Assembly (NCBI RefSeq): GCF_024298765.1 | Contig: NZ_CP101210.1 | DNA: 64,000 nt | Strand: one strand, 5' to 3' | Source of the DNA: Escherichia coli | GTDB taxonomy: Bacteria; Pseudomonadota; Gammaproteobacteria; Enterobacterales; Enterobacteriaceae | Shown here: positions 3,283 to 22,568 of the stretch, piece by piece | How positions within the stretch are numbered: the stretch's first letter is position 1 | Layout of the letters: each line of letters begins with the position of its first letter | Program-made: the position numbers and the translations under genes | The notes under the pieces: generated by a model | Databases searched by the model: none | What the model was told of the DNA's origin: nothing | The model's input: only the letters and a program-made list of their open reading frames with translations

Positions 3283-3846
3283 TCAGTTATGTCGTGGTCG
3301 GCCGCGGTTACTTTTTTCGGGAAGCCTGCTACGGCCCAGAATAATACCGTGTTCTTTCTGATCTTGTTTAGCCAGATAGCTAAGGGCGTAACGTAAGTCG
3401 TCTACCGCAGACTTATCACTATAGTGAATCACGTGATCGATACGCACCGGGTATTTATCTTTAGCCCGGCACAGGTGAAAATAACCCTCCCCTTCCGTGA
3501 TCCGCCTCCAGATATCCCCCAGTTGCCTGGATATCTGATAAGAGTTCTTGTGACGTTGCCCATCCAGATAGCCGATAAAATGAATATGAAGCCCTTTGTC
3601 TGGTGTATATTCCATAACCCAGTAATATCCTGCCAACATCGTCTGGGTTTCGCTAAGTAAACGGTATATTTCCATACACATACTGTGCTTACAGGAATGC
3701 CCGAAACTGGGCGTGTCTTTCCTGTAGGCAAAATCAATTCTGAAAGGTAACAGTTTAGAAAAACGTTGAAACAATCCCTCCATGTGTTCATTCACATCTT
3801 TCAGAATCGCGAAATTCATTTCGTAATTGGGATTGGCATTATACAT
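3283..3846 (-). CDS. YagK/YfjJ-family (inovirus Gp2-like) prophage protein
   Basis: 187-aa ORF whose sequence resembles the YagK/YfjJ family found in CP4-type cryptic prophages. Sits in the same order as in CP4-57 (alpA, yfjI, yfjJ). Confidence 0.5.
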   Translation of the reverse strand: MYNANPNYEMNFAILKDVNEHMEGLFQRFSKLLPFRIDFAYRKDTPSFGHSCKHSMCMEIYRLLSETQTMLAGYYWVMEYTPDKGLHIHFIGYLDGQRHKNSYQISRQLGDIWRRITEGEGYFHLCRAKDKYPVRIDHVIHYSDKSAVDDLRYALSYLAKQDQKEHGIILGRSRLPEKSNRGRPRHN

Positions 3847-16755: not shown

Positions 16756-18213
16756 GTGTCTGAACTGTCTCAATTATCTCCACAGCCGCTGTGGGATATT
16801 TTTGCCAAAATCTGTTCTATTCCTCACCCGTCCTATCATGAAGAGCAACTCGCTGAATACATTGTTGGTTGGGCAAAAGAGAAAGGTTTCCATGTCGAAC
16901 GCGATCAGGTAGGTAATATCCTGATTCGTAAACCTGCTACCGCAGGTATGGAAAATCGTAAACCGGTCGTCTTGCAGGCCCACCTCGATATGGTGCCGCA
17001 AAAAAACAACGACACCGTGCATGACTTCACTAAAGATCCTATCCAGCCTTATATTGATGGCGAATGGGTTAAAGCACGCGGCACCACGCTGGGTGCGGAT
17101 AACGGCATTGGTATGGCCTCTGCACTGGCGGTTCTGGCTGACGAAAACGTGGTTCACGGCCCGCTGGAAGTGCTGCTGACCATGACCGAAGAAGCCGGTA
17201 TGGACGGTGCTTTTGGCTTACAGAGCAACTGGTTGCAGGCTGATATTCTGATTAACACCGACTCCGAAGAAGAAGGTGAAATCTACATGGGTTGTGCGGG
17301 AGGTATCGACTTCACCTCCAACCTGCATTTAGATCGTGAAGCGGTTCCAGCTGGTTTTGAAACCTTCAAGTTAACCTTAAAAGGTCTGAAAGGCGGTCAC
17401 TCCGGCGGTGAAATCCACGTTGGCCTGGGTAATGCCAACAAACTGCTGGTGCGCTTCCTGGCGGGTCATGCAGAAGAACTGGACCTGCGCCTTATTGATT
17501 TCAACGGCGGCACACTGCGTAACGCCATCCCGCGTGAAGCCTTTGCGACCATTGCTGTCGCAGCTGATAAAGTCGACGCCCTGAAATCTCTGGTGGATAC
17601 CTATCAGGAGATCCTGAAAAACGAACTGGCAGAAAAAGAGAAGAATCTGGCATTGCTGCTGGACTCCGTAGCGAACGACAAAGCTGCATTAACGGCGACA
17701 TCTCGCGATACCTTTATTCGTCTGCTGAACGCAACCCCGAACGGTGTGATCCGCAACTCCGACGTGGCAAAAGGTGTGGTCGAAACCTCCCTGAACGTCG
17801 GTGTGGTGACCATGACCGACAATAACGTAGAAATTCACTGCCTGATCCGTTCTCTGATCGACAGCGGTAAAGACTACGTAGTGAGCATGCTGGATTCACT
17901 GGGTAAACTGGCAGGTGCGAAAACAGAAGCAAAAGGCGCATATCCTGGCTGGCAGCCGGACGCTAACTCTCCGGTAATGCATCTGGTACGTGAAACCTAT
18001 CAGCGTCTGTTCAACAAGACGCCGAACATCCAGATTATCCACGCGGGCCTGGAATGTGGTCTGTTCAAAAAACCGTATCCGGAAATGGACATGGTGTCTA
18101 TCGGGCCAACCATCACCGGTCCACACTCTCCGGATGAGCAAGTTCATATCGAAAGCGTTGGCCATTACTGGACACTGCTGACTGAACTGCTGAAAGAAAT
18201 TCCGGCGAAGTAA
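16756..18213 (+). CDS. pepD: cytosol non-specific dipeptidase PepD
   Basis: 485-aa translation matches PepD. GTG start. Confidence 0.95.
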   Translation: MSELSQLSPQPLWDIFAKICSIPHPSYHEEQLAEYIVGWAKEKGFHVERDQVGNILIRKPATAGMENRKPVVLQAHLDMVPQKNNDTVHDFTKDPIQPYIDGEWVKARGTTLGADNGIGMASALAVLADENVVHGPLEVLLTMTEEAGMDGAFGLQSNWLQADILINTDSEEEGEIYMGCAGGIDFTSNLHLDREAVPAGFETFKLTLKGLKGGHSGGEIHVGLGNANKLLVRFLAGHAEELDLRLIDFNGGTLRNAIPREAFATIAVAADKVDALKSLVDTYQEILKNELAEKEKNLALLLDSVANDKAALTATSRDTFIRLLNATPNGVIRNSDVAKGVVETSLNVGVVTMTDNNVEIHCLIRSLIDSGKDYVVSMLDSLGKLAGAKTEAKGAYPGWQPDANSPVMHLVRETYQRLFNKTPNIQIIHAGLECGLFKKPYPEMDMVSIGPTITGPHSPDEQVHIESVGHYWTLLTELLKEIPAK

Positions 18214-18224
18214 TTATTTGATTT

Positions 18225-18262
18225 GCTGCCGGATGGCGTTTAATCGCCTTCCGGCAGTTTCA
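18225..18262. terminator. bidirectional hairpin between convergent pepD and prfH
   Basis: Inverted repeat GCCGGATGGCG...CGCCTTCCGGC between the two stop codons. Confidence 0.4.
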
Positions 18263-18269
18263 TCCTTCA

Positions 18270-18884
18270 TTACCCTTCGATAAAGGCCATCCCTGTAAAC
18301 GTTCGTCGCGGGTTGCCACGTTCAATCTGGTGATGGAACATTCGCCGCTGCGATTTCAGCGCCGCGCTATTTTCCTGTTGCTGTTGTTCCAGCTTCCAGG
18401 CAATCAGTAATCGCGCCAGCCGTTTGTTAGCATGCTGACTGCGCTCTGACTGAACCTTCACGCTAATACCGGATGCCAGATGCGTGGCGCGTACCGCCGA
18501 GTCGGTTTTATTGACATGTTGACCGCCCGGCCCCGACGAACGCAGCGTCTCATAACGGATTGCATCCGATTGTTCCTGCTCATCAGCGGTAAAACGCCCA
18601 ATGCCCAGAAACCAGTTTTTGCGCCCATGATGAGGCCGATACGGACTCGGACAAATCCACTGAATAGTGCCGCACCAGCTTTCGCTTAGAGCCCATGCGT
18701 TATCGCCATCCAGAGAAATCAGCGCCGAACGCAGTGTGTCAGAGTAGCGACCCGTTTCTGTTTCCAGCACCGTTACCGCGACGTCCTGTCGGGTAGCTTC
18801 TTTAATCAGCCTGTCCAGTGCTTTTCTCACTGCGAGACAACATTCTTCCGGCCCCTGAGCAGAGGAGAGTTGTAGCAAGATCAT
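18270..18884 (-). CDS. prfH: peptide chain release factor homolog PrfH (full length)
   Basis: Translation from [23 protein letters not shown] matches PrfH. ORF is uninterrupted and overlaps the upstream rtcB-like gene by 4 bp. Confidence 0.85.
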
Positions 18885-20032
18885 CCTTTTTTCCCTCCAC
18901 TGTTTTTGAGCGTCAGCACCGGGCGCAGTCGCGCGACAGGAATAATTAACCCAGCCAGCACCAGACATTGCACCACGCTTTCAGCCGATTTATAGGCTTG
19001 TGGCGCTTCTTCAAAGATGAGTTGTTTATCGCGACAAATTACCCGACTGCCAAGTTCAGTCCGCGAGAGTTGCGTCGCCGTGTATTTCGCTGCCAGACGC
19101 CCTTTACACTCGGTGCGCCCCCATTTACGCCCCGCCCCATGCGCCAGCGAGTGGAGCGTTTTTTCGTTCGCAACAGGTTTAACCAGCCAGGAGTAATCGC
19201 CGCGTGAACCGGGAATAATCACCAGACCGTTGTCATCCGGCGTGGCGCCTTTACGATGCAACCAGCCCTGTTGATCGCCGATTTGGCACGCGCTAACAAA
19301 GTTATGCGCCACATCCAGAACCGGACTTCCGGTGGCCTTAACTTGTTGCATTATGCGCAAAGCGATCAGCTGGCGATTAATACGCGCAAACGCCAGCGCA
19401 TCGTCATGTTCCGCAATATACCGTAGCGCGTCGTCACTGCCTTCAGGCAAACCATGATGCGAAAACGAGGCAATATGCCGCTGTAAAATAGACTGCCCCA
19501 ATCCCCTCGAGCCGCTATGAACCAGCAGTTGCAGATGCTGCGCATCCAGACCAGCCAGTGCAAACAGTTCCGCGTCGATAATTTGATCAATCTGTTGCAG
19601 TTCTACGAAGTGGTTACCGCCACCGATGGAGCCAAGCGAGTTGCGCCACGGATGCTGTGCAAATGCTGACGGCAGGTTTTCCTCCAGCCAGCTTTCTTCA
19701 GCAACGTCATCCAGATCTGATAATCGCTTTTCAAACTTATCGGCGTTGTATTTGCGAGCGAGAATATCTGTTTGCCATAGCGCCATGCCGCAGCCGATAT
19801 CATTGCCGACCAGTGCCGGGTAAAAACGACCAACAGAGAAGAACGCTGCGCCAATCGGGTAGCCGCGTCCGGGATGTAAATCTGGCATCCCCACAACGCG
19901 CTGCATGTTGGGTAAATTTGCCGTGGTGTGTAATTGTTGGATCGCTAAACTCTCGATCCACAGGTCATCAGATGCGATGGTAAATACCGCATCGGATAAG
20001 GGACGAATATATTTGCCCATGTACCATTCCAT
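18881..20032 (-). CDS. RtcB-family RNA ligase paired with prfH (K-12 ykfJ equivalent, intact here)
   Basis: 383-aa ORF with RtcB-like sequence (GNHFVELQ metal-binding region and conserved His residues). Translationally coupled to prfH. Confidence 0.8.
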
Positions 20033-20209
20033 TTATGAATAAAAATCAGGAAATGGCAGACGAATCCAGGGCAAGAAAAAAGAATTAATCCTGGAAAGGT
20101 CTGCAAAGAGTCATTGATAAAGGATTTGTCATGATTTACCTCCTTGCAGTTTGTGGAATAAGAAAACGCGCACATACTAGACGGGCGTTATTTTCATTGC
20201 AAGCTGGAT

Positions 20210-20662
20210 TTAATGTTGCGGTTTATATCGCATATAAAAATTAGTAAACCACGTTCCCCGGCATTCAACGCGCTGCTGCTTAACTGTCTGAAAACCATAA
20301 CGTTCAAAAAAGGGTTTTGCGGTTATGCTGGCGTCCACCGTAAGTTCGGATTCAGACTTAATCAATGGTTTTAACAAAGCGCTGGCAACTCCGCGTCGGG
20401 TGTATTCCGGTTCAACAAATAACATATCGATATAATGTCCAATGCGGGTAATAAAACCAACCGGTTGTGCATTAATAACTGCAACCCGCACTTGTGATTT
20501 CGCGAGTTTCTCCTTCCAGCGAGATTCGTCAATCTGCGCCCAGGCGGCAATTTGCTGTGGAGAATAGTGCTGACTCGCCGTCATCGTAACAGCTCGAAGG
20601 AAAATAGCGCATAGTTGCTGAAAATCACCAGGCTGATAGTTTCTTATTTGTATGTTATTCAT
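20210..20662 (-). CDS. yafP: GNAT acetyltransferase YafP
   Basis: 150-aa translation matches YafP. Overlaps the dinB stop by 4 bp. Confidence 0.85.
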
Positions 20663-21714
20663 AATCCCAGCACCAGTTGTCTTTCCATTTGAGGGTCAAG
20701 CAACGTCACATGCAGCCCCACCAGTCGCACACCGCGCCCGCCGCGACGTTCATCCCAGGTTTTACGCGCGGTGGCGATTAGATCAGCTTTATTCAGCCGC
20801 GGCCAGACGTGCTCCTGAGTAGTTTGCTGAAAATCGTCGAACTTTAATTTCACCCCCTGGCGAGCAATCAGTAAATCAGGTTTTACCTTTGCCAGACGGC
20901 GTTCAAGTTCAGGATACAGCCGCTCAATAATCGCTTCACATTCAGACCAGTGATGAATATCTTCCGCCATCGTGCGTTCCACGCCGACGGATTTTCGCAA
21001 CCGTTCACTGTTAACGTCGCGCTCGTCAATCCCCTGACTACGCTCCCACAAAATGCGGCCAAATTTGCCAAAGCGTTTAAGCAGAATCACCAGATCACAC
21101 TTTTGCACATCACCGCAGGTCCGCAGCCCCATCGCTTCCAGTTTTGCCGCCGAGACTTTGCCGACGCCGGGAATTTTTGCCAGCGGTAAGGTTTGCAGAA
21201 ATGCCGGAACTTCTGCCGGCGTAATCACAAACTGACCGTTGGGTTTATTCATGTCGGAAGCAATTTTGGCGAGAAACTTGACCGGCGCAACGCCCGCAGA
21301 CGCCGTCAGTTGCAGCTCGTTGAAGATCGTCTGGCGGATTTCCTGGGCGATGAGGGTCGCAGAACCGTGGCAATGGACGCTATCGGTGACATCGAGATAG
21401 GCTTCATCCAGTGATAACGGTTCAATGCGCGAGGTATAGCGCGAGAAAATTTCGCGGATATGATTTGAGGCTTCTTTGTAGGCGTCAAAGCGCCCTGGAA
21501 GCAAGGTGAGATGCGGGCATAATTTGAGCGCCATCCCTGTCGGCATAGCGCTACGTACGCCAAATTTACGCGCGGGATAATTGGCGGTGCTGATCACCCC
21601 CCGTCGTTCGCGGCTGCCGCCAATAGCAATAGGGATATCGCGCAGGGCGGGATTATCGCGCATCTCCACCGCTGCGAAAAAGCAGTCCATATCCACATGA
21701 ATGATTTTACGCAT
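20659..21714 (-). CDS. dinB: DNA polymerase IV
   Basis: 351-aa translation ([33 protein letters not shown]...) matches DinB. Confidence 0.95.
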
Positions 21715-21784: not shown

Positions 21785-22565
21785 TTAACGCGCTCGCTGC
21801 GAAAGCACCTGCTGCTTATCCAGCTTTTGCACCAGCGGCTGCACCACTTTATCCCCATGCTGACCAAAGTATTGATACAGCGTATCGGACGCACTTTTGG
21901 TCAGCACCATAATCTCAATGCGCCGGTTGCCCGCGCTTTGCGGATTTTTGGCATCCAGCAACATCTGGTCCGCCATTGCGCTTACCTGCATCACTTTATC
22001 TTCCGGCATTCCGGCCTCTTCCAGCACCCGACGAGCCGAAAGCGCGCGATCGCCCGAAAGGTTCCAGTTGTTGTAGATATTGTTTTTGTAGGCCATCGCA
22101 TCGGTATGCCCGGTAATAATAATTTTGTTATCGAGAGAGTCGAACACCGGCGCAAGCTCCACCAGCAGCGTTTTAAAGAACGGCATAATCTTCGCGCTGC
22201 CGCGTTCAAACATATTGCGGTTCTGGTCGTCTTTAATCAGCACGCGTAATCCCTGGGGAACAATCTCCATCTCCAGATTCGCTTCCATATGCGCATCACG
22301 GGCGATGGTATTGATACTGGTTGCCAGCTCGCCAAGCTCGGTGGCGGATTTCTTCTTCAGCAGCGCCGTTTTCTCGTTGACGTCGCGCGCTTTTTTCTCC
22401 GTCTCTTCCGGCACCGCCACGGTGGCAGGTTTTGGCGGATGAGACGGGCTGATTTTATTTAACGGCGACAGCCCGCCACCATTGAAAATCGACTGCCCGT
22501 GCAGCGCGGCGATAATGCTTTCACGCTCGGATTTACTGACGCTGTTGACAATCAACTTTATCGTC
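21785..22565 (-). pseudogene. lafU: lafU' (MotB-like Flag-2 motor protein), N-terminally truncated
   Basis: OmpA/MotB C-terminal domain present (IIITGHTDAMAY...NWNLSGDRALSARRVLEEAGM...NRRIEIMVL) but no N-terminal transmembrane segment. Abuts the lfhA fragment. Confidence 0.7.
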
Positions 22566-22568
22566 GTC

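Follow-up and report, generated by a model that had tools for sequence, protein, structure and literature searches.

The window analysed here is the whole stretch of 64,000 nucleotides (nt) of Escherichia coli DNA (contig NZ_CP101210.1 of assembly GCF_024298765.1), in which the genes rtcB2 and prfH lie on the minus strand, flanked by pepD (16756-18213, plus strand) and yafP (20210-20662, minus strand). Reading the sequence, we propose with high confidence that positions 18226-20202 of the minus strand carry a complete RtcB2-PrfH rescue-and-repair operon, made of a promoter, a leader with a small open reading frame (sORF), rtcB2, prfH coupled to it by an ATGA overlap, and a terminator hairpin. 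The genes and the features of the coding part are as follows:

18270..18884, minus strand: prfH, peptide chain release factor H (204 residues, starting MILLQLSS; TIGR03072, PDB 7SA4).
18881..20020, minus strand: rtcB2, PrfH-coupled RtcB-family RNA ligase (379 residues, starting MGKYIRPL; NF007153, TIGR03073, Pfam RtcB).
18881..18884, minus strand: stop/start overlap ATGA of rtcB2 and prfH, read from the sequence.
18226..18257, no strand assigned: stable hairpin in the gap where pepD and prfH converge (RNA fold of -30.9 kcal/mol, z = -5.9 versus shuffles).

As the first-pass annotation of this DNA had claimed, both reading frames are full length and coupled by a 4-bp overlap: they are uninterrupted minus-strand genes in which the TGA of rtcB2 (18883-18881) and the ATG of prfH (18884-18882) share the ATGA, GGAGGG being located 10-15 nt 5' of the prfH ATG. 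Judged from these positions, the overlap is a translational coupling. The same 4-nt overlap occurs in the Salmonella, Kosakonia, Cronobacter, Limnobaculum and Pseudomonas aeruginosa loci, and the arrangement, prfH directly 3' of and coupled to an rtcB2-type gene, is repeated in 12 other genera. A reading frame of 232 residues from 18968 extends prfH 5' into rtcB2; we place the prfH start at 18884 because the TIGR03072 profile is then covered over positions 1-200 of 200 and the protein is identical end to end to chain 8 of PDB 7SA4. Similarly, an in-frame ATG at 20032, located 12 nt upstream of 20020, would give an RtcB2 of 383 residues (MEWYMGKY), and it had first been taken as the 5' end of the rtcB-like gene. 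The supported start is 20020, which is the sole correction to the earlier annotation, because RefSeq annotates a product of 379 residues for the identical sequence in strain Nissle 1917, the NF007153 alignment begins at residue 5 of the 383-residue frame, the published catalytic H294 (mutant H294N) fits only the 379-residue numbering, and the ATG at 20032 is not conserved, an O26 strain having ACG there and both Citrobacter and Intestinirhabdus lacking it. The pepD-prfH intergenic hairpin is probably, from its predicted fold, a bidirectional terminator shared by the two genes, with no clear U-tract on its prfH side.

The identity of the two proteins was ascertained with family models and exact-sequence searches. 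PrfH scored 328.2 bits against the NCBIfam model TIGR03072 (release_prfH; cutoff 166.65), its residues 2-201 covering positions 1-200 of the 200-position profile, and RtcB2 scored 641.1 bits against NF007153 (cutoff 407) and 617.6 bits against TIGR03073 (cutoff 271.8). The Pfam matches are RF-1 in PrfH and RtcB in RtcB2. RF-1 (residues 106-194) is the sole domain match in the 204-residue PrfH, which lacks the release-factor domain 1 and lies far below the cutoffs of the RF1 and RF2 models. PrfH is identical in 204 of 204 residues to chain 8 of PDB 7SA4 ("Peptide chain release factor H", E. coli ATCC 25922). The exact-sequence look-up returned the UniRef names PRFH_ECOS1 and RTCB2_ECOS1 ("RNA-splicing ligase RtcB2"), and both exact sequences are present in more than 1000 contigs. 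Because the PrfH filed under the organism code ECOS1 is the ATCC 25922 protein, we infer the same identity to the characterised ATCC 25922 enzyme for RtcB2. Compared with the characterised RtcB2-PrfH pair, as the first-pass annotation had suggested, PrfH is hence identical by alignment, and RtcB2 by its UniRef100 name.

Both genes are also intact. We looked for internal stops, frameshifts and lost catalytic residues, the last two having been named at the outset as the signs of a defective pair, and found none in rtcB2 or prfH. The GGQ motif of PrfH is present (Gln122 codon at 18519-18521), as is the His294 codon of RtcB2 (19139-19141). Aligned to the Pyrococcus horikoshii RtcB, all active-site residues of RtcB2 are conserved: D47, H49, D74, C77, N136, H137, H168, H239 and H294 correspond, in that order, to D65, H67, D95, C98, N202, H203, H234, H329 and H404. 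We take these residues to be the two-metal site and the guanylylated histidine nucleophile. The H294N mutant of RtcB2 and the Q122E mutant of PrfH are inactive (PMC9304027). The ratios of nonsynonymous to synonymous substitution rates (dN/dS) between the window and two diverged intact alleles (MINF_1A and O26 RM8426, dS of 0.13-0.21) are 0.06-0.09 for prfH and 0.11-0.16 for rtcB2, which indicates that the intact alleles are under purifying selection. We found no evidence against the identity or the integrity of the two genes.

The RtcB2-PrfH module is already characterised biology, obtained with identical protein sequences. The first-pass statement that the pairing has been linked to the repair or rescue of damaged ribosomes is borne out by biochemical, structural and genetic work on the identical ATCC 25922 proteins (PMC9304027, PMC9223846). 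PDB 7SA4 is a cryo-electron microscopy complex of the ATCC 25922 PrfH on a damaged 70S ribosome; PrfH releases peptides from 70S ribosomes solely when their decoding centre is cleaved, being inactive on intact ones, and it recognises the cleaved 3'-terminal nucleotide together with rRNA and S12, not the mRNA (PMC9304027). RtcB2 repairs the damaged 30S subunit but not the tRNAs cleaved by colicin E5 or colicin D, and the pair reverses ribosome damage in vivo (PMC9304027). Deletion of rtcB2 or prfH sensitises ATCC 25922 to colicin E3, to which the K-12 derivative BW25113 is sensitive owing to its truncated operon (PMC9223846). Cleaved 30S and vacant 70S particles are ligated by RtcB2 alone, PrfH speeding the repair of translating ribosomes (PMC13166195). 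The sequence of events is thus established for identical proteins. A ribotoxin, for example colicin E3 or CdiA-CT(ECL), cuts the 16S rRNA between A1493 and G1494, stalling the 70S ribosome; PrfH, a release-factor homologue without domain 1, enters the empty A site, where it reads the cut decoding centre and not a stop codon; its GGQ motif hydrolyses the peptidyl-tRNA, allowing the ribosome to be split; and RtcB2 joins the 2',3'-cyclic-phosphate and 5'-OH ends in the 30S subunit by using guanosine triphosphate (GTP), Mn2+ and a His294-GMP intermediate.

The comparison with K-12 also agreed with what the first-pass annotation had stated of that strain, namely a truncated prfH and a fragmentary ykfJ. 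Both K-12 genes, ykfJ (b0235) and prfH (b0236), are annotated as pseudogenes, and the alignment of the window to K-12 revealed a deletion delimited by the following feature:

18787..19822, no strand assigned: interval between two 9-bp near-repeats (blastn of the window versus K-12, and junction sequences).

The K-12 deletion removes 1027 bp between TGTCGGGTA (18787-18795) and TGCCGGGTA (19814-19822), a single copy being left at the junction. It takes away the start and the first approximately 30 codons of prfH, and all but the first approximately 70 codons of rtcB2 (its 3' four-fifths). It matches the deletion of about 1000 nt described in K-12 and O157:H7 (Baranov et al. 2006). The 2-kb query has a match in 5415 of 5426 complete E. 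coli genomes, and 2709 of them cover it at 80% or more; most of the other genomes have the K-12-type coverage of 49% or a variant of 41%, and at least one (H16) has an IS1 inside rtcB2. The window DNA is 100% identical to that of Nissle 1917 across 18200-20210, and over 14 kb it has one mismatch.

Two other readings of the gene pair were weighed against a functional ribosome-repair module. The pair could be intact in sequence while being a silent or decaying remnant on its way to the K-12 state. The module is indeed dispensable, since about half of the complete E. coli genomes have lost much of it and IS1 insertions occur; however, the dN/dS of 0.06-0.16 at a dS of up to 0.2 points to purifying selection, the proteins are identical to those that protect ATCC 25922 at native expression, and the promoter and leader described below are conserved too, so that a remnant is very improbable. 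Alternatively, the RtcB-like protein could be a general tRNA/RNA ligase like RtcB1, and PrfH an ordinary, stop-codon-like release factor, neither being related to ribosome repair. Both proteins belong to broad Pfam families, RtcB and RF-1, and the closest solved RtcB structures are tRNA-splicing ligases, but the best matches are the PrfH-coupled models TIGR03073, NF007153 and TIGR03072, with RF1 and RF2 far behind, and the published substrate ranges, damaged 30S for RtcB2 and no activity of PrfH on intact ribosomes (PMC9304027), make this reading extremely improbable. The retention of a functional module by this strain, as first suggested, is therefore the reading supported by the identity to active proteins, the intact residues and the low dN/dS. 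This Nissle-like strain should accordingly resist ribotoxins that attack the decoding centre, such as colicin E3 and CdiA-CT(ECL), unlike K-12, B and O157:H7, and such a resistance bears on gut competition and on the choice of laboratory hosts.

Upstream of rtcB2, the 189-nt gap that separates it from yafP is more conserved than the coding sequence: a stretch of 117 nt shows no change among four E. coli alleles, although these differ by 4-5% in their genes. The features found in this gap are as follows:

20174..20202, minus strand: candidate sigma-70 operon promoter (TTGCAA 20202-20197, 17-bp spacer, TAGTAT 20179-20174).
20085..20145, minus strand: leader sORF with its Shine-Dalgarno sequence (SD), namely the SD AAGGAGGT at 20145-20138, 5 nt, the ATG at 20132, 15 codons MTNPLSMTLCRPFQD and the TAA at 20087-20085.
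20015..20159, minus strand: structured leader RNA (covariance model R1).

The 3' part of the leader consists of GUCUGCCAUUUCC, a U-rich stretch, and GGAAUGGUA abutting the rtcB2 ATG. The hexamers of the candidate promoter and their spacing are kept, with a variable spacer, in Klebsiella, Citrobacter, Pseudomonas and metagenome loci; the promoter was not picked up by a consensus promoter scan. Read-through from the SOS-controlled dinB-yafP operon may be the only source of rtcB2-prfH transcripts, a reading against which the conserved -35/-10 pair within the intergenic region speaks. A sigma-54 promoter, as for rtcBA, was considered and rejected, the sole TGG...TGC pair upstream being spaced GG-N8-GC instead of GG-N10-GC. 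The candidate -10 and the GC-rich GTGCGCG that comes after it lie within 20167-20179; the GC-rich part is TCGCCACC in Pseudomonas and in low-GC lineages. It resembles the discriminator of rRNA P1 promoters, and may hint at growth-rate or stringent control.

We compared rtcB2 loci drawn from reference genomes, from contigs encoding named homologues, and from metagenomes. The same leader plan, with the same spacing, occurs in at least 13 genera, Escherichia, Salmonella, Klebsiella, Citrobacter, Phytobacter, Kosakonia, Entomohabitans, Cronobacter, Limnobaculum, Leminorella, Providencia, Proteus and Pseudomonas, and it is kept even in genera with a different operon neighbourhood. An SD-preceded sORF of 13-21 codons was found in 67 of the 76 metagenome loci that have enough upstream sequence, as compared with 9% of shuffles, and one with a strong SD in 59 of the 76 (0.7% of shuffles). 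In several of the nine loci without a detected sORF (L061-type, L060), the distal strand lies at the edge of the 260 nt examined, and their sORF may be further upstream. The covariance model R1, made from the plain MAFFT alignment described below, matches beside rtcB2 in about 60 loci. In the 64-kb window it gave one match above noise (20015-20159), the 141 bits of which show only its uniqueness in the window, the source alignment containing the window sequence, and a reverse-strand echo that overlaps this match (12 bits, E = 0.64). There is no annotation at the leader in MG1655, where the sORF maps to NC_000913.3 253,239-253,286, and no Rfam 15 family matches it. Our search found no literature on the sORF peptide or on rtcB2 with a leader peptide, a prior mention in Morita et al. 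2009 being possible, and the regulation of rtcB2-prfH in E. coli goes undescribed in the RtcB2-PrfH literature that we searched.

The helices predicted in the leader RNA are as follows:

P1, 20149-20140 with 20110-20101, minus strand: CUGCAAGGAG (which contains the sORF SD) with CUCUUUGCAG; it would sequester the SD.
P2, GCAGAC 20104-20099 with GUCUGC 20061-20056, minus strand: 5' strand inside the sORF; supported by covariation.
P2', CCAGG 20094-20090 with CCUGG 20070-20066, minus strand: predicted by RNAalifold.
P3, 20058-20049 with 20030-20022, minus strand: UGCCAUUUCC with GGAAUGGUA; it would cover the rtcB2 ribosome-binding region.

The central helix P2 changes on both strands from one lineage to another, as shown by its 5' and 3' strands:

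E. coli: GCAGAC / GUCUGC
Limnobaculum and Leminorella: GCAGGC / GCCUGC
Entomohabitans: GCAGAU / AUCUGC
Providencia: GCGGGC / GCCCGC
Proteus: GCGGAC / GUCCGC

The nested P2 and P2' helices were predicted by RNAalifold on a plain MAFFT alignment of the 13 genera, 6 of the 11 pairs changing on both sides. The counts made on 50 distinct leaders, in which P2 is paired in 98.7% of the cells with compensatory changes in 3 of its 6 pairs and the whole structure is paired at 90%, versus 19-50% when the partners are slid by 1-3 columns, come from a model-fitted alignment (A6) that favours the structure, a bias to be set against them; the plain MAFFT/RNAalifold result serves as an independent check on it. 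The MAFFT alignment A3 misplaced the Proteus 3' strand by two columns, and A6 was used for the counts. The covariation score was reached by none of 500 shuffles, and the number of pairs changing on both sides by 3 of 500. One position of P3 is clearly compensatory, being U-A in E. coli and A-U in Klebsiella, and the P1 helix is compatible with the sequence data.

It is conceivable that the sORF encodes a functional micropeptide, and that the conservation reflects the peptide and not an RNA switch. The C-terminal LC(R/G)xxQ of the sORF peptide is conserved in enterobacteria, as this reading would have it. Against it, the sORF's N-terminal half is unconserved, the conserved CTTTGCAG is read in two frames, which give Leu-Cys-Arg (44 leaders) or Phe-Ala-Gly (6 leaders), and the Arg-to-Gly changes of the Proteus and Providencia peptides are matched by compensating changes in the distal 3' strand. 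From these two frames and the compensated Arg-to-Gly changes, we conclude that the constraint is on the RNA rather than on the peptide, and regard a functional micropeptide as very unlikely.

Three other elements of the leader were considered. A pairing of GUCUGCCAU with the rtcB2 start AUGGGCA was rejected, as it is not conserved where the start is ATGGAC; a pairing of AUUCCA, in the 5' untranslated region, with UGGAAU is E. coli-specific and absent in Klebsiella, hence not general; and a mimicry of 16S rRNA helices 44/45, as a candidate autoregulatory site, yielded short matches only, by eye.

The E. coli leader is homologous to one of known function. In P. aeruginosa, the operon of armZ (PA5471) and PA5470 (prfH) is controlled by the 13-residue leader peptide PA5471.1, stalling on which induces armZ; the inducing stalls can arise from antibiotics that target the ribosome, from an amber codon at position 3, or from mutations in suhB, cca, fmt or folD (PMC3516279, PMC12057347, PMC13041342). 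K-12 ykfJ is itself reported to be inducible by 4-azaleucine (Morita 2006, cited in PMC3516279), the one result that bears on an induction of the E. coli operon by ribosome arrest. The fetched P. aeruginosa leader reads GCAAAGGAGG-N7-ATG ATT CAG TTC TCT ACC CTT TGC AGG CTG CGC CTG GCC TAA, and its product MIQFSTLCRLRLA has the Q3 and F4 described in PMC13041342. In P. aeruginosa as in E. coli, the operon consists of an RtcB gene of cluster PRK09588 and, overlapping its end by 4 nt, prfH. The two leaders have in common the SD GCAAAGGAGG, an sORF of 13-15 codons with CTTTGCAGG, a distal complementary GUCUGCC, and GGAUUGG just before the ATG of armZ or rtcB2; in the fetched P. aeruginosa locus, the distal GGUCUGCC and GGAUUGG come ahead of the armZ ATG. 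R1, which includes no P. aeruginosa sequence, matches the leader of armZ over its whole length between the SD and the ATG (25.6 bits, E = 1e-6). A published P. aeruginosa deletion of nt 16-22 is constitutive (MexXY review, 2025). It takes out ACCCTTT, which is the 3' strand of P1, and leaves that of P2 in place, so that its constitutive phenotype fits a model in which the formed P2 is the "on" state.

From these data, we propose that the expression of rtcB2-prfH is probably set by the upstream leader. In the free RNA, P1 would hide the sORF SD and P3 would cover the ribosome-binding region of rtcB2; once arrested early on the sORF, a ribosome would keep the 5' strand of P1 occupied, thereby letting P2 form and raising rtcB2-prfH expression. 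Folding with ViennaRNA is in line with this scheme: the free leaders form P1, P2' and P3, and blocking 31 nt around the sORF start leads to the full P2, so that the P1-to-P2 switch is well supported by the models. As for the way in which P2 would raise rtcB2 expression, the candidates are a weakening of P3, which in its extended form has 1-3 nt in common with P2, or an anti-termination as proposed in Pseudomonas. In E. coli, the accessibility of the rtcB2 start region in equilibrium folding goes from 0.26 to 0.40 with the ribosome footprint.

Several observations weigh against this scheme. Averaged over the leaders, the accessibility of the rtcB2 start region rises little with the footprint, from 0.33 to 0.38, with an increase in 27 of the 37. 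In enterobacteria only 1-3 nt are common to P2 and P3, so that the two are not cleanly exclusive. P1, which is complementary in 92% of the cells, shows no covariation. Finally, a terminator scan of the minus strand over 20021-20209 detected in the E. coli leader no hairpin with a U-tract of the kind proposed for P. aeruginosa. P2 itself was rejected as an intrinsic terminator, the U-tract beginning 8-12 nt past its stem. In an alternative scheme, the leader would sense stalls by premature transcription termination, as proposed for P. aeruginosa, instead of masking the site where ribosomes bind rtcB2. In its favour, segments 3:4 form a terminator in the P. aeruginosa model, every lineage has a U-rich tract after the 5' strand of P3, and the approximately 158 extra nt inside the P. 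aeruginosa P2 could hold terminators. However, the terminator scan of the minus strand was negative and E. coli has no hairpin directly next to the U-tract; this tract forms the P3 loop, the 3' strand of P3 being the stretch just 5' of the rtcB2 ATG; and the P. aeruginosa model still needs confirmation (MexXY review, 2025). We therefore see sensing through termination as an unlikely mechanism, though one with a real chance of being right.

Returning to the leader, the broadest proposal, that it works as a ribosome-arrest sensor in E. coli and across Proteobacteria with the toxin-damaged ribosome as its natural inducer, is a tentative one, which we hold to be somewhat short of probable. The idea of this inducer comes from the finding that E3-cleaved ribosomes accumulate at start codons (PMC13166195): sitting at the start of the sORF, a cleaved ribosome would release the P2 strand and thus switch on its own repair operon. 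If this is true, the antibiotic induction of MexXY via ArmZ in P. aeruginosa is a lineage-specific co-option of an older repair-operon sensor. The present analysis adds a connection of the E. coli operon to the stall-sensing leader of Pseudomonas, together with the covariation of the central helix across many lineages. ArmZ, PA5471 and Pseudomonas are unmentioned in PMC9304027 and PMC9223846; the two systems are not connected in the literature that we searched on RtcB2-PrfH (E. coli) and ArmZ (Pseudomonas), Morita et al. 2009 being outside its scope; and the leader mechanism has been called apparently unique to MexXY (MexXY review, 2025). The leader supplies concrete helices for asking whether ribosome damage induces ribosome repair.

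A second type of leader was observed in distant rtcB2 operons of 56-59% identity (L066, L072, L086, L088, L101, L068, L078, L081, L098 and L104). Its sORF has 19-21 codons with a core …F/L-x-G-L… or …SLWAGS…; the SD is complementary to the middle of the sORF, a distal strand is complementary to the sORF, a CCAAUCC pairs with the GGAUUGG before the ATG, and about 3 nt belong to both the P2 and the P3 strand. In yet other loci (L077, L079, L082-L085, L092, L094, L096 and L097), the sORF is MTQTITCSIKLCSPVV, P2 is the 8-bp GCAGCCCG/CGGGCUGC, and GCCGTCTGAA lies between the leader helix and rtcB2. We take GCCGTCTGAA to be the Neisseria DNA uptake sequence.

The K-12 leader carries a 129-bp insertion between window positions 20036 and 20039 (3311-3439 of locus L001), i.e. 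in the P3 loop just 5' of rtcB2. It has near-matches to the ERIC1R and ERIC2 primer sequences, and is ERIC-like. A 56-bp short form of this insertion is present in O26, and Escherichia sp. MOD1 and Klebsiella spallanzanii have insertions at the same place; a palindromic element in the P3 loop would leave the P3 helix intact. In Intestinirhabdus alba (L016), an insertion of about 190 nt separates the sORF from the distal strand and prfH is broken into reading frames of 144 and 61 residues, which, from the sequence, looks like an independent decay of the module.

Other observations concern the proteins and the neighbouring genes. The proteins P0032 (522 residues) and P0068 (583 residues) carry both the RtcB and the RF-1 Pfam domains and thus look like RtcB2-PrfH fusions, which may be genuine and span the ATGA junction, or be artefacts of gene calling or assembly. 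Proteins of 141-176 residues named "metal-dependent hydrolase" share a 90%-identity cluster with PrfH and are probably misnamed products of other prfH deletion variants. In the window, dinB (20659-21714) overlaps yafP (20210-20662) by 4 bp, the yafN-yafO toxin-antitoxin genes that intervene in K-12 being absent. The dinB-(yafP)-rtcB2-prfH-pepD synteny is kept across Enterobacteriaceae, yafP being missing in Salmonella, Kosakonia, Cronobacter and Entomohabitans. Further along, positions 21785-24254 hold remnants of a lateral flagellar (Flag-2) cluster, with lafU and an flhA/lfhA-like reading frame for which RefSeq marks an N-terminal truncation in Nissle 1917.

The closest known system is the RtcB2-PrfH pair of ATCC 25922, which is alike in its proteins, gene order, ATGA overlap and yafP-pepD chromosomal site. 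No difference is detectable in the proteins; the window differs in being a Nissle-1917-like chromosome, where the module is known from its sequence. The K-12 locus is alike in its flanks, the dinB operon and pepD, in a DNA identity of approximately 97-99% where present, and in having kept the promoter, sORF and leader, but it lacks the 1027 bp and has yafN-yafO between dinB and yafP. The RtcB1-RtcA operon (RtcR/sigma-54) shares the superfamily and the ligation chemistry, whereas its partner gene differs; RtcB1 and RtcB2 are 28% identical and have mutually exclusive substrates, tRNA versus 30S (PMC9304027). The PrfH of the Capnocytophaga gingivalis type (PDB 9MOR) is of the same family, with the GGQ domain, but is far more divergent (E-value 2e-40); intact non-stop ribosomes are rescued by it too, in contrast to the E. 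coli type with its specificity for damaged ones (PMC12829566).

As to the leader, the P. aeruginosa system differs from that of E. coli in the approximately 158 extra nt inside P2 and in the acquired anti-repressor role of ArmZ towards MexZ. Stall-sensing, which is experimentally shown in P. aeruginosa, is here proposed for E. coli. The translational attenuation of the ermC/cat type is alike in that a short leader reading frame overlaps a strand of alternative helices and that an early arrest is proposed to raise the downstream gene. It differs by an unrelated sequence; in the present leader, the SD of the sORF itself would belong to the switch, through P1, and the P2 and P3 strands barely overlap.

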